From: a phage
Direction: 5' to 3' (one strand)
Sequence record: PZ166176.1
Length of the DNA stretch: 64,000 nt
The notes below the pieces were generated by a model. It saw nothing but the letters and a program-made list of their open reading frames with translations, was not told the DNA's origin and made no database searches. Both the position numbers and the translations under genes were made by a program. Below are positions 69-62,391 of this stretch, in pieces. Position 1 is the stretch's first letter, and each line of letters begins with the position of its first letter.

Positions 69-434
69 ATGTTAGTTGACGTTCAAATTATGCGCAATGA
101 AAGGATGGACCTCTTTGAAGCAGTAGAGAAACATCTGATTCGATGGGACTATGAATTTGTTCCTGCTGGATGTGGACCAGTAGAGCATTTAGCGGAAGAC
201 GACGATGTATACATGATCATTCGTCAAGTGTACCAGACAGACCAGTGTGAAGAAACTCCCGAACTGATTTTGTTTGAGTGTAAAGATCTTGCAAAATATT
301 TTGACTATGGCGGAAAAGAGGGTCATAATCTCTCCAGATACAATAAACGTCTACTTATCTTAGACTACATGCGAAACAACAAACACAAACTCATCGACGC
401 AGACGCAGTTTATGGCTACTGGTGGATGGACTAA
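69..434 (+). CDS. hypothetical early protein (121 aa)
   Basis: Intact ORF with AGGAGG SD about 8 nt upstream of the ATG; no family recognised. Confidence 0.6.
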   Translation: MLVDVQIMRNERMDLFEAVEKHLIRWDYEFVPAGCGPVEHLAEDDDVYMIIRQVYQTDQCEETPELILFECKDLAKYFDYGGKEGHNLSRYNKRLLILDYMRNNKHKLIDADAVYGYWWMD

Positions 435-447
435 CAAAGGAGAAATT

Positions 448-636
448 ATGGCACGTTTAGCAGATAACCCTGTATTCTACCCCGTTCTTGATCTTTATGA
501 TGAATTGACATATGTTGTGGAGCGGTATAACTACAATGAAGATCTTTTGGAGACAAACCTTAAAGTGGTCCTGATGAAAGCCTATCAGCAAGGGCAACGT
601 GAAATTTTGGAGAGTATGAAAAATGCGAATAACTGA
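448..636 (+). CDS. hypothetical early protein (62 aa)
   Basis: ATG at 448 preceded by AAAGGAG; the ORF-track start at 412 lies inside the upstream gene. Confidence 0.55.
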   Translation: MARLADNPVFYPVLDLYDELTYVVERYNYNEDLLETNLKVVLMKAYQQGQREILESMKNANN

Positions 637-1165
637 TGATTACGTATTCTTCTTTTCACATAAAGATGTGTTTAGTAATTGGTATATTGCACCCTTTACA
701 GAAACCGAACCAGGTTACAATCAAACATTTAATTGTGTCGAACAATACATGATGTGGCGTAAAGCTTTGCTTTTTAATGACCACAACACTGCACAGGCTA
801 TTCTGACTCATAGTTTGATACGGAAAGATGAGAAGATCCAAGCTTATTACAAACGTATGGGTAGGGCAGTGTCGGATTTTGATAACAACGTATGGGAAGA
901 GAACCGTGAGCGTATTGTTATGCGAGGTTTATGCTTGAAATATGTACAGAATCCAGATTTGTATGCAGACTTACACCTTTACCAATACAAAACGTTTGTT
1001 GAAGCAAGCCCCTACGATAAGGTTTACGGAATTGGAATGGGGATGTATGAACCAGGGGTGCTAAACCCTGCCACCTGGAAAGGGCAGAATCTTTTAGGCA
1101 AATATCATAACAAACTGATCGAAATACTTTTCCCAGACAAAATACCGCAAAGACGATATTTGTGA
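623..1165 (+). CDS. NADAR-domain (YbiA-like) protein, putative ADP-ribose processing enzyme
   Basis: 180 aa; motifs FFFSHKDVFSNWY, CVEQYMMWRKALLF, MGRAVSDFDNNVWEENRERIVMRGL, LKYVQNPDL, VEASPYDKVYGIGMG align with NADAR/DUF1768 (E. coli YbiA) blocks. Confidence 0.7.
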   Translation: MRITDDYVFFFSHKDVFSNWYIAPFTETEPGYNQTFNCVEQYMMWRKALLFNDHNTAQAILTHSLIRKDEKIQAYYKRMGRAVSDFDNNVWEENRERIVMRGLCLKYVQNPDLYADLHLYQYKTFVEASPYDKVYGIGMGMYEPGVLNPATWKGQNLLGKYHNKLIEILFPDKIPQRRYL

Positions 1166-1221
1166 TATTTTAACTTTTTTCATTTTTAGAACAAAGGTGT
1201 CACTTTGTAGCACAGAAATAA

Positions 1222-1258
1222 GGCTCCTACAGCACCGTAGAGAGCCTGTTATTTTGTC
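1222..1258 (+). terminator. rho-independent terminator after the NADAR gene
   Basis: GGCTCCTACAG-cacc-GTAGAGAGCC hairpin followed by a T-rich tract. Confidence 0.55.
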
Positions 1259-1414
1259 TTATACAAACACTTATCTTTTTCAGTTTGCATCACTAGGATT
1301 CGATCTGGGTGGGTTCCTGAAGGTCTACCAATAAGATTAAAGGTTATATCAAATTCCCACTATCTTTTATCTCAAAAATCCCTCAAATTATTTAAACTTT
1401 TTAAGAATTTACAA

Positions 1415-1711: not shown

Positions 1712-1938
1712 TAGAGAATGACGCGCAGGGGTGGTGTTTGTCTCGCGCTCCCGTGTCCCCTCGCCATGTAATAAGAATAACAGATCCAGCCAGGAAAGCA
1801 AGCGATTATTTTATCTTTACATTTCTTTACAAATATATAGCGCCCAGCCTACCGGCGATCAACCTTCCAACCAGCGCCCTGGTATGTTAGCCCCGCCTTT
1901 ACGCCGTGGGGTGGCGCTTCCTCTTCTGTATGTAAAAC

Positions 1939-1969: not shown

Positions 1970-2236
1970 TTATTTTTTGTTTTCTTGCCAGGATAGGACA
2001 CCTAACCAAAAATACATATCGCCCCGCGCCCCTGGTGGTATCTTGCTTTCCCCGCCGCCACTGCAAGCCCATAGATAACCATTTGCGAACGTATCAAAAT
2101 GATCTATCTCTTCCACCTTATGATCGCCCAGGTTGAGAACGGTTTCAACCTTTAAGCCCGTTGCGCTTGCTACCTGGTGCACCGTGCCGCCTTGCCAGCC
2201 CAATGAGTGCATAAGGTGTAATGTAGTAGTTGTCAT
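1970..2236 (-). CDS. hypothetical protein (88 aa), doubtful
   Basis: Only ORF in the GC-rich island with a plausible SD (gaaaggg, 8 nt upstream); no family recognised; may be spurious. Confidence 0.3.
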   Translation of the reverse strand: MTTTTLHLMHSLGWQGGTVHQVASATGLKVETVLNLGDHKVEEIDHFDTFANGYLWACSGGGESKIPPGARGDMYFWLGVLSWQENKK

Positions 2237-13249: not shown

Positions 13250-13264
13250 TTGACAACAAAACAA

Positions 13265-13291
13265 GGGGCGCACCAAGCGCCCTTTCTTTTT
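13265..13291 (+). terminator. rho-independent terminator (GGGCGCACCAAGCGCCC family)
   Basis: gggcgcaccaagcgccc plus tttcttttt. Confidence 0.7.
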
Positions 13292-13498
13292 GCCCGAACA
13301 ATGTTGATAGCTTTCGCCTATGAAAAACCGACACAGAACAAAATTGAATAAATCGCGGTATCGAGCTAATCAACCATTAAACGAATAACCATACCTCCCA
13401 GGGTAACAGGCTGTTAGAGAGCCATTTATAGCGGTTAAAATCGATCAACAACCAACAACAAACCATCAAAAACACCCTTTTACCTCCTTTCTAGTGCA

Positions 13499-13516
13499 AT
13501 GATAACCATTATCATC
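13499..13516. promoter_or_regulatory. Fur-box-like palindrome
   Basis: aatgataaccattatcat. Confidence 0.4.
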
Positions 13517-14056
13517 TATCCATGTTTATCTATGCAATATAAGTGCATAACTATAATGTTGATAATAGTTCGCAACAACTAACTAACCAACAACCTAAAA
13601 CAATAAGCAAACTAATCATAATCAAAGGAATAATAGCAAGATGATTGATAACGACAAACAATCAAACCATGATGAATACTAAGCAAGATAACGATAACAC
13701 GACAAAACAACCAACTAACGAACAATAACAAACGAAACCATTAAAATAATAACTATTGCCATAATAGTGACTGAATGAAATCATTACAAAACGAATCATT
13801 CCCAGGATCATCATTAGCACGCTATGCCGGACACATAGCGAGCTAATAATAAGCCAACTACACCCCAACAATCATAACCATCGGTGATGGTTATTTCTTG
13901 TTACTGCGTAGCTTGCAATGATTGCAAGCGTAATGACGCTTACACTCATTGCGCTGGCTTATTATTAGCATTATATGTAATTACCAAGATCATAACATTA
14001 GCGCAATAACAATAATCATTGTAATGGTTACAATATGAAATCATTAGCATGGCAAT

Positions 14057-14212
14057 AATTATTGGGGGCAATGGGAGGATGATTATCATCATTCCGATAC
14101 ATTGCACACTATGCACATAATAGAATAAAAGTCAATAATTTTGGGGGCGAATACTATCGCGTAGCGATATGTTGAGCACTAAGAAAAGAGATAAACCTTA
14201 ATCATGGGGGCG
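14057..14212. repeat. three direct repeats of a TGGGGGC core
   Basis: attattgggggcaatggg (14057), aattttgggggcgaatac (14135), aatcatgggggcgtaaat (14198); a second direct repeat ATGTTGAGCA at 14165 and 14248. Confidence 0.5.
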
Positions 14213-14330
14213 TAAATATCCGAGGATTGCCAACGGCGATCCGGTAGGATGTTGAGCATCTTCTCTTAAACGTAAATAAAATCAGAAAATTCTTGATTTA
14301 TTATGGTTTTTATGTTAATAAATGTTTAAA

Positions 14331-14349
14331 TAATAATCATTCTCATATG
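14331..14349. promoter_or_regulatory. Fur-box-like palindrome
   Basis: taataatcattctcatatg. Confidence 0.4.
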
Positions 14350-14420
14350 AATAATAGTCTGCTTGTCATGAGCGGGATTAATTGACATTGTTCCGTCATA
14401 TGATGAAGTTGCCAAGCCAT

Positions 14421-14451
14421 TGATAAATAAGTGTTTGTGTGATTTATAATC
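14421..14451 (+). promoter_or_regulatory. sigma70-like promoter (TTGATA-N18-TATAAT)
   Basis: ttgataaataagtgtttgtgtgatttataat; candidate promoter for the block starting at 14868. Confidence 0.4.
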
Positions 14452-14507
14452 AAGTGGCCCACCTTGTCGCTATGTTGGCATGAGCCTTGCATAAGTCATT
14501 GAATACG

Positions 14508-14526
14508 AATGATAATTATTCTCATT
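14508..14526. promoter_or_regulatory. Fur-box-like palindrome
   Basis: aatgataattattctcatt, about 55 nt downstream of the candidate promoter. Confidence 0.45.
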
Positions 14527-14867
14527 CGCATGATATTTGGGAATTGTCGCTGCGTGGACCTGACGGCCCGAAAATTCGCGTTAAGCACTTCTTACGTATG
14601 CGCCATGATTTTTGCCATATCATATTGATTCTATTAGATATTCTTGCCGTGATTGCCATGAAACAGGGTGTCCCGAAATAATCTCTCCCCGTAGATATTT
14701 TGGGTTACTTTTTATACAAGAGTGGGGTGTCAAAAATAATCGGTATATATGGGATAATTGATAGGGAATACCAATGATAAATGAATTGTAATTGTCGAGG
14801 ATTGATCGTAGGATGTTGGTGATTGATGATTGCCATGAAAGATGGCTAACGATGAGAGGAGATTATC

Positions 14868-23845: not shown

Positions 23846-23872
23846 GAATACAGCAATAGTTTAGGAGTGGTT

Positions 23873-24544
23873 ATGAAAAAGTTTGTTGTTTACAGTCGTC
23901 TTTCTAAACAGAAAAAAGGTGAGGCACAATATGGTATGGAGAGCCAAGAGAACGATATTCGTTACTTCTTAGACTCTGTGCCTGATGCTGAAGTTATTGG
24001 TCAATTTTCTGAATACTATTCGGGTAAGGGCGATTGGAAGCAACGTAAGGAACTGGTCAAAGCGGTTGAAATGTGTAAAGCTACCGGAGCAACTTTATTG
24101 GTAGCTAAAGTTGACCGCTTGGGTCGTAACAACGCCTCCGTAGCAACTCTTCTAGAAATGATCGATGTTAAGATAGCCATTATGCCAGACGCAGATAAAA
24201 TGGTTATACAGCTTCTGTCTGTTCTGGCTGAACAAGAAGTTAGAGGTATTGCTGATCGTATTAAAAAGGGTCTTGCTGTAGCAAAAAGCAAAGGTGTTTT
24301 ATTAGGTAGTGCTAATCCTAAAACTGCCGCTGCACGTAGAAAAGGAAAAATGGAATACAACTCTGTTAAAGCAGACGCTTTTGCAGAGACATTCCGTGAA
24401 CGTTTGGAGATCCTTAGAGATTTAAATACACCTTACAAAACTATTGCTGAAAAATTCAATAGTAAGAAAATAGCAACAGCACGTGGTGGTAAATGGGATG
24501 CTAAAACTGTTTCTCGTTTGTGTGCCAGACTTAACATTAAATAG
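23873..24544 (+). CDS. serine recombinase (resolvase/invertase catalytic domain)
   Basis: VYSRLSKQ (catalytic Ser region), LLVAKVDRLGRN, LLSVLAEQEVRGIADRIKKGLAVAKSKG resemble the Gin/Hin/TnpR catalytic domain; C-terminal GGKWDAKTVSRL resembles the recombinase domain of large serine recombinases. Confidence 0.75.
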   Translation: MKKFVVYSRLSKQKKGEAQYGMESQENDIRYFLDSVPDAEVIGQFSEYYSGKGDWKQRKELVKAVEMCKATGATLLVAKVDRLGRNNASVATLLEMIDVKIAIMPDADKMVIQLLSVLAEQEVRGIADRIKKGLAVAKSKGVLLGSANPKTAAARRKGKMEYNSVKADAFAETFRERLEILRDLNTPYKTIAEKFNSKKIATARGGKWDAKTVSRLCARLNIK

Positions 24545-31373: not shown

Positions 31374-32189
31374 TTATTTGTTTAAGTGGTCTTCGACCAT
31401 TTTAATGAAACCTTCATTGCTGAAGGCTGTTGCAGCTTTTTCTCGGTAAACAAAAACTCCACGATCTTCATAGAGAAGTGTTTCTTCGTAATTAACTCCA
31501 GGGTTAACTACAACCATTTTTGTACCCATACTAAGTGCAGGAAATAATTCCCAATTAAAATTGATAACTTGGTTTGAACACCCTACTACTACAACCAAAT
31601 CTTGCATGGTCAAAGTATCGAACAAGTGAGCCATATCTGCATACAAAGGTGCAGCCTCACCAAAAAATACAACATTAGGCTTCACCCAGTTATAATCATC
31701 TATGTTTATACTATTGTAACCAATATCTACCAGTGTTTTGTAATCTCCAGGATGCATACGGTAAACTACTTCAGGAAGATATCCGTGCACGTGAATAACA
31801 GAATCTCTGTCTACACCTGCTCGCTCTAGTAGATCATCAACGTTTGTTGTCAAGTTTACTACTTGGTTAGGATATTCTTTAAACCATTTTGCTATTTGAA
31901 TATGTGCAGCATTAGGCTGTACATCTTTAAGTTCAACACGTCTTTTGTTATAAAATTCGTGTGTTTTGGCATACAAATCCATACCGTTCTCGTCTACACC
32001 ACCGACCACTGGAAGATCTGGAGATGTTCTAACACGATAACCTGCCTGGAAAGCTCCAATATCGCAGACCTCTTCTAAATCATATTCTTCCCATAAGGCA
32101 CGACCACTATCGGTGTCTGTTCGGAATGTTCTAATCCCACTATCTGCACTTAAACCTGCACCGCTTACAAAAATCACTCGTCTTGGCAT
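31374..32189 (-). CDS. Sir2-family protein (CobB-like NAD-dependent deacylase or NADase)
   Basis: VIFVSGAGLSADSGIRTFR, ALWEE, NLTTNVDDLLERAG, VIHVHG match sirtuin/CobB motifs; the Cys4 zinc-ribbon module appears absent. Confidence 0.8.
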   Translation of the reverse strand: MPRRVIFVSGAGLSADSGIRTFRTDTDSGRALWEEYDLEEVCDIGAFQAGYRVRTSPDLPVVGGVDENGMDLYAKTHEFYNKRRVELKDVQPNAAHIQIAKWFKEYPNQVVNLTTNVDDLLERAGVDRDSVIHVHGYLPEVVYRMHPGDYKTLVDIGYNSINIDDYNWVKPNVVFFGEAAPLYADMAHLFDTLTMQDLVVVVGCSNQVINFNWELFPALSMGTKMVVVNPGVNYEETLLYEDRGVFVYREKAATAFSNEGFIKMVEDHLNK

Positions 32190-43981: not shown

Positions 43982-44131
43982 CTATTCGTCGTCTCCTACT
44001 CCGTGATCCAACTCGTTAAACAACAGATGTTCTGGAGAAGTTTCACGTTTTGGTTTCGTTTTCTTTATGTTGGACTTCAGCTCATTTGCCAAAGCACGAG
44101 AAAAGATCTTACGTTTCTGTTTACTTTTCAT
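43982..44131 (-). CDS. 49-aa basic small protein
   Basis: MKSKQKRKIFSRALANELKSNIKKTKPKRE...; SD gcggag. Confidence 0.4.
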   Translation of the reverse strand: MKSKQKRKIFSRALANELKSNIKKTKPKRETSPEHLLFNELDHGVGDDE

Positions 44132-44136
44132 AATTG

Positions 44137-44397
44137 TTACTCCGCAATTTGAGCCATGAGATCACGCAGTTCGGTAAAACCGCCTACGTATGTTACCTCC
44201 CCGTTCACTTCGGACAGAATTTGTGGAAATGTGCGTGGAGGAACTCCGGTAAGATCAACAACTGTTTTAGTCATTGATTCTAAATCATAGTCTTGATCAA
44301 GACTTAAATATTCAAACTGTTTATTGCGCATGGTTAATAGTTGTTTTGACATTTCACAAAATTGACAGTTAGGTTTACCAAAAATTACAAATTCCAT
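44137..44397 (-). CDS. glutaredoxin-like protein
   Basis: 86 aa, CQFC active-site motif near the N-terminus; sits with nrdAB. Confidence 0.7.
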   Translation of the reverse strand: MEFVIFGKPNCQFCEMSKQLLTMRNKQFEYLSLDQDYDLESMTKTVVDLTGVPPRTFPQILSEVNGEVTYVGGFTELRDLMAQIAE

Positions 44398-45239
44398 TAC
44401 CTCTCCTTATTAAGTAATACTGCTAAAGACTGTTCAATACCTTTATTTAAATCTGATTTTGTAAGATAGTGACTGGTTACTAGTTGTGACTTCACCGGAC
44501 GTGCTGCTGGAGCATTATAGGTTGAAGCTGATACCGCCGATATCTTAACAGGTTCTGGCATCTGTGTCAAGATCTTTTCCGCAAACTCCGCCCAAGAAAT
44601 AAGATGGCTTCCTGCAAAATGGTAAGTCTTAACAGACCTTGACCAACCTGTTTTTAATACTTCAAAAATAGCTTCTGCTAAATCTGGAGCATATGTTGGA
44701 CAAGAGAACTGATCAGCAACAATAATAAAATCACGTTGTCCATCATTATAGCGAGACAACATGGTTTTTAGAAAGTTATTTCCAAATTCGCTATATACCG
44801 AGGCTGTTCGAATAATATATGCATTTGGGTTAACTCCTCGCACCATTTTTTCACCAAGTTCTTTCGTATACCCATAATTGTTTATTGGGTTAGGTGTAGT
44901 ATCTTCAAAAATAGGATGAGAATAATTAAAAATATAGTCTGTGGAAATATGCACAAAATCGATTTTAAGTTTGCTGCACACTGCCGCAATATTTGCAGGT
45001 CCATACGCATTAACAGCCAAAGCAGTAGCAAAATCATGTTCTGCTTTATCTACAGCCGTATAAGCGGCGCAATTAATAACCCCATCTACATAATCTTCAA
45101 CAATAGCGTTTCGCACAGCTTCAAAATTTGTAATATCTACACGTTCTTTAGGATAAATTAAAGATACATTTGAAGGAACCACTTTACGTAAAGCTTGTCC
45201 CAGTTGTCCATTACCACCCAATACCAGATATGTTAGCAT
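44397..45239 (-). CDS. rmlD: dTDP-4-dehydrorhamnose reductase (RmlD)
   Basis: GGNGQLG, AAYTAVDKAE, STDYIF, YGYTK, GNNFLKTML, ADQFSCPT, ARPVKSQL align with E. coli RmlD blocks. Confidence 0.8.
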   Translation of the reverse strand: MLTYLVLGGNGQLGQALRKVVPSNVSLIYPKERVDITNFEAVRNAIVEDYVDGVINCAAYTAVDKAEHDFATALAVNAYGPANIAAVCSKLKIDFVHISTDYIFNYSHPIFEDTTPNPINNYGYTKELGEKMVRGVNPNAYIIRTASVYSEFGNNFLKTMLSRYNDGQRDFIIVADQFSCPTYAPDLAEAIFEVLKTGWSRSVKTYHFAGSHLISWAEFAEKILTQMPEPVKISAVSASTYNAPAARPVKSQLVTSHYLTKSDLNKGIEQSLAVLLNKER

Positions 45240-45799
45240 ACACCCTCGCTACGTAACTGTTGAAAAGATTTAGCCATTGCATCTTTTGTTGATAAAATAG
45301 GTTTAAAACCTTCGTCAAAAATCATATCGAAGCCCCAATCAATCCCTATATCAGGATCATCCCAACGTAAACTTTGTTCACTAGAAGGGTCGTATGGAGT
45401 TGTGCATTTGTATTCAAAGATCGCATCCATACTCAAAACTATGAAACCATGTGCCAAACCAGGAGGAAGCCAAAACTGCGTATGGTGTCGTGCACGAAGA
45501 ACAACACCGTCCCAAGCACCGTAAGTTGGGCTATCTTTACGTAAATCTACAGCGAAATCCAATACTTCCCCACTTACACAACGAACAAGCTTACCTTGCG
45601 GATTATTTGTTTGAAAATGCATTCCTCGCAAAACACCGAAGTTTGATTTAGACATATTATCTTGAACGAAAGTTTGTTTACCAATGATATCTTCGTATTT
45701 TTGTTCATTGTATGTTTCTAAAAAGAAACCACGATCATCTTTATAAACGTCTGGTTTGATAATTACCGCACCTTCAATTTTTGTTTTTTCTACTTTCAT
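45233..45799 (-). CDS. rmlC: dTDP-4-dehydrorhamnose 3,5-epimerase (RmlC)
   Basis: DDRGFFLET, RGMHFQ, QGKLVRCVSGEVLDFAVDLRKDSPTYG, PPGLAHGF, RWDDPDIGIDW align with RmlC. Confidence 0.85.
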   Translation of the reverse strand: MKVEKTKIEGAVIIKPDVYKDDRGFFLETYNEQKYEDIIGKQTFVQDNMSKSNFGVLRGMHFQTNNPQGKLVRCVSGEVLDFAVDLRKDSPTYGAWDGVVLRARHHTQFWLPPGLAHGFIVLSMDAIFEYKCTTPYDPSSEQSLRWDDPDIGIDWGFDMIFDEGFKPILSTKDAMAKSFQQLRSEGVC

Positions 45800-45808
45800 T
45801 TTCTCTCC

Positions 45809-46135
45809 TTACCAGACGTGTTGAGAAATAATAGTTTCCGTTTTAATATTATATTTTTCAAGTAGCTCTGCATAGGCTTCTTTTGCATTCTCATTCAATT
45901 GCTCAAGATCTACAGCTATGCTTCCTTCTCCGCCTTCTAAATCAAGGCCGTATATGCAATAAGACTCATCCGCATCGTAGAAAGGAGAGATGCGGCTTAA
46001 GTCCAGACCTTCTTGTAAGAACCAGTTAAAATCTCCATCAAATTCTTCTTCAATTCTAGGATCTTCTCCTACAGCCTCTTCCCACTTATTAAAAGGTGCA
46101 CCCTGTAACATACGCCATTCGATATCAATACCCAT
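45809..46135 (-). CDS. hypothetical acidic protein (108 aa)
   Basis: SD gaggag. Confidence 0.6.
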   Translation of the reverse strand: MGIDIEWRMLQGAPFNKWEEAVGEDPRIEEEFDGDFNWFLQEGLDLSRISPFYDADESYCIYGLDLEGGEGSIAVDLEQLNENAKEAYAELLEKYNIKTETIISQHVW

Positions 46136-46289
46136 TTTTCATCTCCTCCTCTTCTTGAGCAGCTTTAATAATTGCTTCATAAATATCGTAAGCAATGCCT
46201 CCACAACATCTAGCTTCGAAAGCTATTGCTTCTGCAATGTGATCTGTTAATTCTCGTGGAATGCGGACATACTCTTTTTCACTCTCCAT
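46125..46289 (-). CDS. 54-aa small protein
   Basis: MESEKEYVRIPRELTDHIAEAIAFEARCCGG...; overlap-coupled on both sides. Confidence 0.4.
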   Translation of the reverse strand: MESEKEYVRIPRELTDHIAEAIAFEARCCGGIAYDIYEAIIKAAQEEEEMKNGY

Positions 46290-46431
46290 CTTCTACCTCC
46301 AACCCTTCTTTTTCAAAGACTACTACTCGTCCCTCACCATGACAATTCAGGCAAGGAAATGTTACCATAATTTCCACTTCCATCTGTCCAGTCCCACCGC
46401 ACACAGGACAAAAAATAAGTTTTTCAGCCAT
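46279..46431 (-). CDS. 50-aa zinc-ribbon small protein
   Basis: MAEKLIFCPVCGGTGQMEVEIMVTFPCLNCHGEGRVVVFEKEG; TAATG overlap with the upstream gene. Confidence 0.5.
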   Translation of the reverse strand: MAEKLIFCPVCGGTGQMEVEIMVTFPCLNCHGEGRVVVFEKEGLEVEDGE

Positions 46432-46640
46432 TATTCCTCCTTAATTATTTCAAACTTGGCAACACCATTTACAATAATATGACCACAAGACATAACTCCT
46501 AGCCAAGGATCGCCGTTTTTCTTCCGGCGTTTACCGAATACATCACAAAAACCATTCTTCATTTCGGAGGCTTCATAAGAAGCCCCTTTGTCAAAAACGT
46601 CTTTGAATGTGTCGATTATACCAACACATCTCAAAATCAT
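46431..46640 (-). CDS. hypothetical protein (69 aa)
   Basis: ORF coupled to nrdB. Confidence 0.55.
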   Translation of the reverse strand: MILRCVGIIDTFKDVFDKGASYEASEMKNGFCDVFGKRRKKNGDPWLGVMSCGHIIVNGVAKFEIIKEE

Positions 46641-47725
46641 TAGAAGTCAAGCTCCTCATCATCAGAGAGATCTTTGTTAGCTGAATTCAATTTGTAATTA
46701 GTTAACTGAATCTCTTGGGCTGCTGACTGAATCAAATCAGGATTCAACCATTTTTCCATCCAAGCTAAAGGACTATGTTTAGGTGCTTTAAACTTGGCTT
46801 TCATTTTCAATCGACGATAAATAGGAGCAGCATTGAAATAAACCCACTGTTTAGACAATTCGGCGTTAAGACCTACAATAAAACGACCTTCACTAAACAG
46901 GTAGTCACACCACTGTTCCTCTTGTTCAACAACAGTGTCGAGGATCAAAGTCAACTCTTCAATATTGTCTTCGTAAATTTTACGCCAAATTGGGTCATGC
47001 ATCAATGCATCAATTACAGCATAATCCATCTTAACATGCAAGATTTCATCTAGCATAATTTTCTGGATCAGTTTACAAGCCCCAACAAACAGTTGTTGTT
47101 CTGCCATAGCAAAAGTAGCAGAGAAGGAAGATATAAACTGAATACCTTCTAATCCAATCAGGGCTACCATCCCTTTAAGAATCAGCAATCGAAGTTCATC
47201 GTTAGCTTCAATCAATCCTAGAGCATACTTATGACCAGCTTCTTCCAACTGACCCATGATATCAGCAATGATACCCATACGATTGAAAATTTTATCATTA
47301 ATCATAATCTGATTGATGACTTCAATTGGATCTGGAGTACATTGACGGATTATTTCAGAATACGTTAACGCATGGAGAACTTCCATTTCACTCTGCTTCA
47401 TCATCATAGCACAGGCTTCATTGTTACTCAAGAATGGAGAGAACAAAGTGATGATTGATTTTGCAAGAGAATCATTTTCCCATTGGAACGATAAGTTTTT
47501 AATCATAACATCGTAGTTGTTTTTAGAACAAGCTACGAAATCTTTACGTGTCTGATCCAGATTAACTTCGTTTTCATCCCAATCTTGTGCTTTTTGAAGC
47601 TTGTAGAGTTTGTGCATTTCTGGGTAAGTTACGTTAACAGAATCAAAGATCCCTAATTGCTCCCCCAAAAATACTGGATATTTTCCTGTTTTGTAAACTT
47701 CATTGTGTAAATTAATTGCTGCCAT
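46640..47725 (-). CDS. nrdB: ribonucleotide reductase class Ia small subunit (NrdB)
   Basis: 361 aa, ferritin-like family; C-terminal acidic tail DDEELDF typical of the R2 tail; SD ggagga. Confidence 0.85.
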   Translation of the reverse strand: MAAINLHNEVYKTGKYPVFLGEQLGIFDSVNVTYPEMHKLYKLQKAQDWDENEVNLDQTRKDFVACSKNNYDVMIKNLSFQWENDSLAKSIITLFSPFLSNNEACAMMMKQSEMEVLHALTYSEIIRQCTPDPIEVINQIMINDKIFNRMGIIADIMGQLEEAGHKYALGLIEANDELRLLILKGMVALIGLEGIQFISSFSATFAMAEQQLFVGACKLIQKIMLDEILHVKMDYAVIDALMHDPIWRKIYEDNIEELTLILDTVVEQEEQWCDYLFSEGRFIVGLNAELSKQWVYFNAAPIYRRLKMKAKFKAPKHSPLAWMEKWLNPDLIQSAAQEIQLTNYKLNSANKDLSDDEELDF

Positions 47726-48050
47726 TTAAATCCTCCACTATTTCACAAAAACCTCTTAAGCTTAAAATATCTTCTTCCTCAAAATCATTGCTCCGGTAGA
47801 AAGCTTCCAGTGCTTCCCATACGCTTCTACCAAGTATAACAGTCACTGTTTCTTCACTTCTTGCCCTTGTTATTGCGTAAGCCGTGGCTTCTGGATAAAA
47901 AGATTCCCAAATCTGCATGTTAGCTATTTCAAGACCGCCAAGATAATGGTGGCACCAAGTAGGGGTAAAATCTTCAGGGCGAATCAACAGAGGCTTAAAC
48001 CCAGGTCGGTAGATTGGGGTTACTCCAGGTAAAACTATAAGTGTGCTCAT
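47712..48050 (-). CDS. hypothetical protein between nrdA and nrdB (113 aa)
   Basis: ATG at 48050 with SD gaggagg; the track start at 48119 would overlap the nrdA 3' end and the hairpin. Confidence 0.55.
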   Translation of the reverse strand: MSTLIVLPGVTPIYRPGFKPLLIRPEDFTPTWCHHYLGGLEIANMQIWESFYPEATAYAITRARSEETVTVILGRSVWEALEAFYRSNDFEEEDILSLRGFCEIVEDLNGSN

Positions 48051-60905: not shown

Positions 60906-61838
60906 TTATCCTCCAAAAAAGTTTTCGATTTTTTCACGTCGTTCTTGCTGATTTAAAGCAGCCCATTGAATCTTCGTAAAATTATTTTGAATCCATTCTA
61001 ACAAAGCGTAATATTCTTCGTCAACCATTTGTTTGGCATTTTTTGGATTATCCCAAATCAGATCCCACTTTTTATCTCCACCGCGCATAAGAAACTTCTT
61101 AGTAAGATAGTGTGGTGATTTAATTTTTAAAAGTAAGTTGAACGGATAGTTTGTTTCACGAACTACAAACCCTTCGTGTTTACAATGTTTAGACATTTCA
61201 ACAACATCTGAAAACTTAACCATTGGATGAACTTCAGGACGCTTAAATTTGGTGACAGAAGCAATTCCATCAAGAGCACCTTCAGGTAACATAAAACTTG
61301 TCCCATCAGGATTTTGAATTCTGGCACCAATTAAGTATGCACCTGGTTCTTCTTCGACAATATGCGGATCAGAAGGATCACAGATTTCAAAAAGGAAAGT
61401 TGCTTTTGCACTCTCTGTCCATTTGATGAAATGTTCTATGTCATCACACTCTGAAACAATATGATTCTTTGCAATACTTGCAAAATCTGATTCAAGGCTT
61501 CCTGTTGTCGATACAATAAGTTGACCTTTATATACACCTACAGAGGCCATAAAACCATTTATTTTACGAACCACATCTACAAGTTCATCCGCTGGTAGAT
61601 CTGTGCCATTCTCAAAACGATTAAAAATCTTAGTGAAAGGCCAAATAACAACATTGTCATCAGCATCAACAACGATTCCGCGACATTCTAGAAGACGAGA
61701 ATCAATGCTCCATAAGTTATCCCAGAAAACTTTGTTCTTATACTTAAGAACAGATAGACCAGAATACTCTCCTTCTTTATATGTTTTCTTATGAACTAAA
61801 CCTTTTTCAACCAAATCGTCGCAATTAAATTTAGCCAC
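60906..61838 (-). CDS. RNA ligase (Rnl2-like nucleotidyltransferase)
   Basis: Motif I RKINGFMA (compare T4 Rnl2 KIHGTN), motif IV EGFVVRE, motif V LLLKIK. Confidence 0.6.
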   Translation of the reverse strand: MAKFNCDDLVEKGLVHKKTYKEGEYSGLSVLKYKNKVFWDNLWSIDSRLLECRGIVVDADDNVVIWPFTKIFNRFENGTDLPADELVDVVRKINGFMASVGVYKGQLIVSTTGSLESDFASIAKNHIVSECDDIEHFIKWTESAKATFLFEICDPSDPHIVEEEPGAYLIGARIQNPDGTSFMLPEGALDGIASVTKFKRPEVHPMVKFSDVVEMSKHCKHEGFVVRETNYPFNLLLKIKSPHYLTKKFLMRGGDKKWDLIWDNPKNAKQMVDEEYYALLEWIQNNFTKIQWAALNQQERREKIENFFGG

Positions 61839-61839
61839 A

Positions 61840-62391
61840 TTATTCTCCTTTGATTATTTTGTGATGGTCTACAGTCACGATATCTCGTTTACTCATCATA
61901 GAAATTATCTCATCAAAATGCAAGATTTTTCCGTGTGCATCCCAACCCACATCTAACATTTTACCATAAGCTTCATCAGGGAAAGATCCGTGGGAATGCC
62001 CGTGTAGCATGATTGATCCACGACCTTGTTTATTCCAGGAGGCCATAGGGTAATGGCTTAAGACGAAGAACAGCTTCTGATATTTCACTTCGTCATAATA
62101 CACCACTTCTCCATACTCTGCAAGCACTTCTCGGTGTTTGCTGTAGTCATGGTTCCCAACACAGTAGGTGATATCTCCTTGAAGACGGGAAGCAATTTTA
62201 CGGGTATCTTCTTCAGTTCCGAAACAGAAGTCGCCCAAATGCCACATCTTAACACCAGGAGTAGTAGCACATTTGTTCCATGCTTCGATCAAGGCTTCTG
62301 TCATGTGGTCCATATCTTCCCACGGACGATATTCAGGAGCAAACTCTCGAATACGTTTATGCATAAAATGCAAATCGCTTGTAATAAACAT
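61840..62391 (-). CDS. calcineurin-like metallophosphoesterase (candidate RNA end-healing phosphatase)
   Basis: SDLHFMH, LGDFCFG, VGNHD, LHGHSHG motifs. Confidence 0.7.
   Translation of the reverse strand: MFITSDLHFMHKRIREFAPEYRPWEDMDHMTEALIEAWNKCATTPGVKMWHLGDFCFGTEEDTRKIASRLQGDITYCVGNHDYSKHREVLAEYGEVVYYDEVKYQKLFFVLSHYPMASWNKQGRGSIMLHGHSHGSFPDEAYGKMLDVGWDAHGKILHFDEIISMMSKRDIVTVDHHKIIKGE

Follow-up and report, generated by a model that had tools for sequence, protein, structure and literature searches.

Close to the start of the phage DNA analysed here (record PZ166176.1, 64,000 nucleotides, hereafter the window) lies a gene whose product the original prediction had read as a NADAR-domain protein and a plausible phage counter to DarT-type guanine ADP-ribosylation. 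The locus raises the question of what this protein is and which ADP-ribose-containing substrate it acts on. All tested NADAR subfamilies hydrolyse guanosine-ADPr in vitro (Cihlova et al., PMC11125620; PMC12945103), yet YbiA and T4 AdfN, which also do so, do not rescue uninfected E. coli from DarT1 (PMC11125620, PMC11257639), and the in-cell efficacy of a NADAR is not predictable from its fold alone. The AdfN proteins of phages T4, Bas32 and Bas60 undo the guanine ADP-ribosylation made by DarT1 and overcome DarTG1 (Johannesman et al., Nat Commun 2025, PMC11825919). AdfN-Bas32 and AdfN-Bas60, which are unrelated phage NADARs, neutralise DarT1 even without phage and let RB69, T5 and Bas25 form plaques again on DarTG1 cells, leaving DarTG2 unaffected (PMC11825919).

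Genome setting of the NADAR gene

The first 3 kb of the window shares 94-97% DNA identity with many Phapecoctavirus genomes (phAPEC8, ECO340P1, BI-EHEC, EF1-1, anhysbys and others), which are ~150 kb E. coli myoviruses of the subfamily Stephanstirmvirinae; by this comparison, the source of the window is a Phapecoctavirus, that is, a phAPEC8-like E. coli myovirus. The product of ORF 623-1165 is 100% identical to EF1-1 gp254 and 98% identical to phAPEC8 gp010, of which it is the ortholog; identities to relatives are 98-100%. It is the only NADAR in the window.

The gene and its signals are listed in Table 1. The upstream ORF 412-636 runs past its start codon, and this overlap suggests translational coupling of the two. 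Together with ORF 69-434, the upstream ORF is missing from the version of the locus found in Justusliebigvirus. Downstream of the NADAR gene, the segment 1205-1265 folds at -21.1 kcal/mol (z -4.7; none of 200 shuffled sequences is equally stable), and in phAPEC8 an ARNold-predicted terminator is annotated at the position matching the hairpin in this segment. The hairpin marks the end of the operon that has the NADAR gene as its last member.

Table 1. Features of the NADAR locus and of the downstream element, in window coordinates.
Feature	Position	Strand	Remarks
Two small ORFs, same operon	69-434 and 412-636 (69..636)	+	homologs of phAPEC8 gp012 and gp011
Shine-Dalgarno-like GGAGAG	609..614	+	8 nt 5' of the NADAR ATG; read from the sequence
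NADAR (AdfN-like) CDS	623..1165	+	ATG to TGA, 180 aa plus stop; from the ORF list
Glu40 codon	740..742	+	PnNADAR E43, C7 DarG1 E88, T4 AdfN E36; distal ribose coordination (PMC11543638, PMC11257639)
Lys47 codon	761..763	+	PnNADAR K50, C7 DarG1 K95, T4 AdfN K43; phosphate coordination, essential for G-ADPr hydrolysis (PMC11543638, PMC11257639)
Glu127 codon	1001..1003	+	PnNADAR E125; class-marker position
Asp132 codon	1016..1018	+	PnNADAR D130; water-mediated phosphate contact
Intrinsic-terminator-like hairpin	1221..1260	+	AGGCUCCUAC...GUAGAGAGCCU, then U-rich GUUAUUUUGUCUU
Core of candidate small RNA element	1849-1930	+	CTACCGGCGATCNACCTTCC, hairpin 1869-1885, hairpin 1886-1915, pyrimidine-rich tail

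On a larger scale, bases 1-30.7 kb contain almost only small plus-strand ORFs, and minus-strand genes follow from 31 kb on. Sigma-70-like promoters number 90 in 1-20 kb against 55 +/- 8 expected, and 26 of the best 30 lie on the plus strand; this excess fits early transcription by the host polymerase and thus supports the putative 'early region' in which the gene had originally been placed. Near-consensus sites of this type (TTGACA, 16 nt, TAnnnT, in many cases with TG upstream) stand in front of most small plus-strand genes between 2700 and 13000. A literature search for transcriptomic data on Phapecoctavirus-type phages gave nothing useful.

The NADAR had also been described as the only recognisable enzyme, besides a recombinase, in the first 30 kb, and this held: among the 20 largest plus-strand ORFs in 1-31 kb, a single one, 23867-24544 (Resolvase, E 5.4e-18), scored above a Pfam cut-off. 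This ORF, in the middle of the block of small plus-strand genes, encodes a short serine recombinase with a Resolvase N-terminal domain and is labelled 'DNA invertase' in EF1-1. At the start of the minus-strand block, 31374-32189 (-) encodes a Sir2-family protein (PF02146, E 1.3e-22), a second NAD+-using enzyme. Comparison with the EF1-1 annotation further places a dTDP-sugar pathway (thymidylyltransferase, epimerases) at ~44000-47800 (-) and an RNA ligase and phosphoesterase pair at 60906-62391 (-).

At the left edge, the window (positions 1-75) starts within the 3' end of a gene annotated 'endonuclease', whose product has a treble-clef zinc finger and four CapR homology domains; its Justusliebigvirus version carries an additional T5orf172 domain. 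An AAA ATPase gene precedes it, upstream of the window start, and the two genes correspond to phAPEC8 gp013 and gp014. We found no tie between these two upstream genes and ADP-ribose chemistry. Likewise, there is no ART toxin gene near the window NADAR, nor in the annotated genome of the phage with an identical NADAR; the neighbours are small ORFs, the CapR-domain protein and the AAA ATPase, a setting that fits an orphan phage NADAR.

Domain, fold and active site

ORF 623-1165 encodes an intact, full-length NADAR domain protein, as originally predicted. The match to Pfam NADAR PF08719 (DUF1768) runs nearly end to end (E 7.8e-36, 124.2 bits against a gathering score of 35.1; residues 11-161, model positions 3-154 of 163), and TIGR02464 (113.1 bits against a cut-off of 73.7) and PHROG 1017 (E 7.5e-52) are matched as well. 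When solved structures were searched by sequence, the sole convincing match was the Phytophthora nicotianae NADAR (PnNADAR, 8BAU; E 3.8e-15). A profile built from 37 homologs and run against the PDB retrieved 8BAU at 7.5e-35 and E. coli YbiA at 1.3e-15, and did not match the G. lovleyi DarG1 structure at E <= 1; phmmer with the window protein did not find YbiA at E <= 1. The AlphaFold2 model (pLDDT 95.5, pTM 0.89) has the YbiA-like fold, an alpha-helical core flanked by two small beta sheets, and Foldseek against the PDB at E <= 0.001 returned just 8BAU (TM 0.78) and YbiA 2B3W (TM 0.69).

The ADP-ribose contacts of PnNADAR are E43, K50, K75, R79, W89, R93, E125, D130 and W133 (Schuller et al., PMC11543638). 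In E. coli C7 DarG1, the counterparts of E43, K50 and E125, namely E88, K95 and D171, are required for guanine de-ADP-ribosylation (PMC11543638), and in T4 AdfN mutation of E36 and K43 abolishes counter-defence (PMC11257639). Since the deposited 8BAU chain is numbered two higher than in the paper, this offset was applied in the alignment. The window residues E40, K47, K77, R81, W91, R95, E127 and D132 then correspond to the first eight PnNADAR contacts in order, and the sole changed contact is W133, which is Y135 in the window protein; every catalytic residue is kept. Six of these residues (E40, K47, K77, W91, E127 and D132) are invariant among the 37 homologs, which are 41-88% identical to the query. 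E40 is likewise unchanged when T4 AdfN and YbiA are aligned with the window protein.

The position of Glu127 serves as a class marker: DarG1 has Asp there, T4-type phage NADARs have His, and the general and YbiA types have Glu (PMC11543638). DarG1 additionally carries a basic N-terminal extension for which ssDNA binding has been proposed (PMC11543638); the window protein has no N-terminal extension and begins directly at the first core strand. By sequence comparison, the window NADAR belongs to the general, PnNADAR-like family.

Orthology to AdfN-Bas60 and proposed function

Bas60-62 are phi92-like phages, now placed in Justusliebigvirus, the sister genus of Phapecoctavirus. We located AdfN-Bas60 as PaulScherrer bas60_0111 (QXV83846.1), the sole NADAR found by tblastn in that genome. 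The window NADAR is 59% identical to it over 172 aa (E 2e-69), and the locus has the same order in both genera: AAA ATPase gene, CapR-domain gene, NADAR and the same non-coding region, Phapecoctavirus having the two small ORFs in addition. Because of this identity and shared locus, we regard the window NADAR as the ortholog of an experimentally validated AdfN. The orthology lends support to the originally proposed role against DarT-type guanine ADP-ribosylation, and activity of the window protein against DarT1 in cells would be expected from it.

Taken as a whole, the material is probably best explained by an orphan AdfN-type NADAR ADP-ribosylglycohydrolase that counters DarTG1. We infer its expression timing, enzyme activity, substrate and counter-defence effect as follows. 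The NADAR would be expressed during infection from an operon of the host-RNA-polymerase type, where the long plus-strand block of small genes begins. The protein would then hydrolyse the N-glycosidic bond that joins ADP-ribose to guanine N2 in DNA, thereby clearing replicating phage DNA of the marks set by DarT1, the toxin of the DarTG1 defence. Once these marks were cleared, phage replication could proceed. Several features speak against this explanation: the window protein lacks a basic N-terminal extension of the DarG1 type, its marker is Glu rather than Asp, W133 is replaced by Tyr, and it diverges from AdfN-Bas60 at 41% of positions.

Phage NADARs acting as orphan antitoxins against DarTG1 were already published in 2024-2025, and the window protein adds no new principle; our search found no literature on the Phapecoctavirus NADAR specifically. 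What the assignment offers is a probable function for a gene that ~70 Phapecoctavirus genomes carry under the label 'hypothetical protein' or, in error, 'GTP cyclohydrolase II'. These phages include several therapy candidates; natural resistance to DarTG1 is predicted for them, which bears on host-range prediction.

Sequence variation within the gene

Among the Phapecoctavirus NADAR alleles, dN/dS is 0.05-0.2, which is the signature of purifying selection on the gene. A homolog is present in 719 phage records, and in 711 of them at least 80% of the protein is covered. Two types of Phapecoctavirus allele can be told apart, mainly by codons 31-90, and are nearly identical elsewhere: this segment holds 23 synonymous and 15 nonsynonymous differences, the rest of the gene 11 and 1. 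Since synonymous and nonsynonymous changes are equally raised in codons 31-90, positive selection on these residues was rejected, and the pattern indicates mosaic recombination within the gene as the better fit.

Downstream non-coding DNA and a candidate small RNA

The 1.3 kb beyond the terminator-like hairpin has an unusual make-up. Bases ~1380-1600 are non-coding, have 23-27% GC and contain direct repeats of 72 nt and 29 nt. They are followed at 1606-1714 by four 19-nt palindromes (AATGAKAWTSATTCNYATT) spaced at 29 nt, and the array in 1380-1714 is kept in the relatives. The site at 1690-1708 agrees with the E. coli Fur-box consensus in 16 of its 19 positions, and no other such site occurs in the 64 kb (0.03 expected); the palindromes could be Fur sites or replication-origin-like iterons. 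A second non-coding region of ~1.6 kb, at 13250-14867, has no ORF of 70 aa or more and contains Fur-box-like palindromes at 14329-14347 and 14502-14526 along with many ATCATT/AATGAT motifs. In ECO340P1 and Mt1B1_P17, the region corresponding to our 3-kb query is stretched to ~4.2 kb and includes a 'putative endonuclease', which suggests a homing-endonuclease insertion in the intergenic DNA matching 1166-2500 in some relatives.

The array is followed by an island at ~1715-2480 with 50% GC that is ~93-97% identical between Phapecoctavirus and Justusliebigvirus, whereas the genes that flank it have diverged much further, the synonymous divergence of the adjacent NADAR gene being saturated. The island found no match in 5,426 E. 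coli genomes, and an origin as host DNA was rejected on this basis. Within it, an element at ~1849-1930 (+) is conserved across Stephanstirmvirinae and Vequintavirinae; we collected 21 distinct sequences from phages of Escherichia, Klebsiella, Salmonella, Serratia, Cronobacter and Pectobacterium. On the plus strand the element can fold into two hairpins. Compensatory changes are seen in the first (one pair reads A-U in 10 sequences, G-C in 6 and is broken in none), and its covariation score is 0.102 against 0.040 +/- 0.011 in shuffles, from related sequences with few events. The second hairpin is invariant and contains three G-U pairs, so that it forms on the plus strand only. No Rfam family matches the element, and tRNA and Rfam scans of the whole window found nothing. 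The element may be an undescribed phage small RNA read from the plus strand; the evidence is modest, as the covariation comes from a small number of events among related sequences.

The island also holds an 88-aa ORF at 1970-2236 (-) that is 93% identical to PaulScherrer bas60_0113, is annotated in several relatives and has no Pfam match. In phAPEC8, a plus-strand ORF (1738-2079) is annotated over the same DNA instead.

Alternative substrates

The Glu-type, PnNADAR-like clade to which the window protein is assigned is widespread: large myoviruses of Staphylococcus, Listeria, Enterococcus, Bacillus and enterobacteria carry homologs of 35-45% identity, in hundreds of cases. A wider nucleic-acid specificity of the window NADAR is plausible, and it would extend the anti-DarTG1 explanation, not contradict it. 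The clade might consist of broad-spectrum de-ADP-ribosylases that are active on guanine as well as cytosine, in DNA and in RNA, and shield the phages against several ART toxins besides DarT1, the patch at residues 31-90 possibly being the record of an arms race over recognition of substrate or inhibitor; we consider this idea doubtful. Another view is that the protein acts mainly on base ADP-ribosylation made by enzymes other than DarT1 (for example guanosine- or cytidine-ADPr, in RNA or DNA, from other ART toxins), with the anti-DarTG1 effect being secondary or one of several. The profile matches (8BAU and YbiA, not DarG1) and the Glu marker, which place the protein in the general family, are in keeping with it. 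Members of the general and YbiA families also act on RNA and strip off cytidine-ADPr, a modification that DarG1 and T4 AdfN do not remove (PMC12945103, PMC11833690). Moreover, the closest PADLOC model is not DarTG but the NADAR component of an uncharacterised candidate system, PDC-M42C (E 1e-35). Against this, we found in the literature searched no E. coli defence toxin that makes cytidine-ADPr or RNA guanosine-ADPr, and the nearest assayed ortholog, AdfN-Bas60, counters DarTG1 in vivo. This view is unlikely.

Bacterial relatives of the window NADAR match PDC-M42C as well (E 1e-35 to 3e-45 with the window protein included). One homolog, on Burkholderia contig L008, has neighbours of the sort seen in mobile elements or defence islands (Gp3-like, SMC/LmuB-like ATPase, PLD).

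A different kind of substrate was proposed from contextual analysis for most phage NADAR, Macro, SLOG and Nudix domains (Iyer et al. 2022, PMC9503650). On this proposal, the window protein would degrade soluble ADP-ribose-derived molecules, such as the immune signals of TIR or other NADases, rather than nucleic-acid marks. The Sir2 homolog at 31374-32189 accords with this proposal as a second NAD+-using enzyme in the phage. However, the proposal is without experimental support for any NADAR, all phage NADARs assayed so far act on G-ADPr DNA, and the window gene is neither fused nor adjacent to Macro, SLOG, Nudix or DUF4326 genes; we judge it very unlikely.

Highly improbable is a YbiA-type N-glycosidase that destroys reactive riboflavin-pathway intermediates, and this was rejected as the main function: TIGR02464 (riboflavin biosynthesis intermediates N-glycosidase) is indeed matched, Glu occupies the YbiA-type marker position and several GenBank records read 'GTP cyclohydrolase II', 'ribA/ribD-fused protein' or 'YbiA-like N-glycosidase', but TIGR02464 is a domain model passed by any NADAR of the clade, YbiA, absent from the phmmer matches, is ~30% identical in alignment, the window protein is stand-alone, riboflavin, RibA and RibD genes are all absent from the fully annotated EF1-1, whose NADAR is 100% identical, neither of the two bacterial homologs examined lies beside rib genes, and a lytic phage has no evident need of such a clean-up role.

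The NADAR is labelled 'GTP cyclohydrolase II' in the records of EF1-1, ABPW7, ESCO5, Mt1B1_P17, KMB37 and AV123, and that of phage Eryne 'DNA methyltransferase'; these labels are annotation errors inherited from the naming of RibA fusions.

Comparison with characterised NADARs

Compared with the antitoxin DarG1 (E. coli C7, G. lovleyi), the window protein belongs to the same superfamily and would, as inferred, catalyse the same reaction. DarG1, in contrast, adjoins the DarT1 gene, has a basic N-terminal beta-beta-alpha extension and carries the Asp marker. Membership of the DarG1 group was rejected, given the lack of an adjacent toxin and of the extension, the Glu marker and the absence of a profile match to the DarG1 structure.

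T4 gp30.3 (AdfN-T4) is, like the proposed function of the window protein, a phage NADAR countering DarTG1, and its E36 and K43 align with E40 and K47 of the window protein; however, it has the His marker in place of Glu127 and falls in a separate, DarG1-related clade. Pairwise similarity between the two is not detectable (BLASTP E 4.6), phmmer with T4 AdfN found no match anywhere in the window, and membership of the gp30.3 clade was rejected on the lack of similarity and of the marker His. The two characterised phage proteins also differ from each other, in that AdfN-T4 acts only in the context of T-even infection whereas AdfN-Bas60 acts alone.

E. coli YbiA (2B3W) shares the core fold and the Glu marker. 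Apart from its low identity, it differs from the window protein in its LexA-controlled operon, its role as a riboflavin-intermediate N-glycosidase and its failure to protect cells from DarT1. PnNADAR (Schuller et al., Mol Cell 2023) is the best-matching solved structure both by sequence and by fold, has the Glu marker, and has its ADP-ribose contacts conserved in the window protein; it is nevertheless a eukaryotic protein with no known toxin link, ~28-35% identical, with extra N-terminal and internal segments and Trp at the position of Tyr135.

The closest counterpart is AdfN-Bas60. It has been assayed experimentally, and the residues that differ between it and the window NADAR include those of a loop (residues 62-72) near the active site. 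The Bas60 protein has a 6-residue insertion in the first beta-hairpin and another C-terminal tail, and only Phapecoctavirus has the two small ORFs upstream. On the other side, both are orphan phage NADARs of ~180 aa that share their active-site residues and an extra loop after helix 2, and both are encoded at matching genomic positions in phages of the Stephanstirmvirinae.
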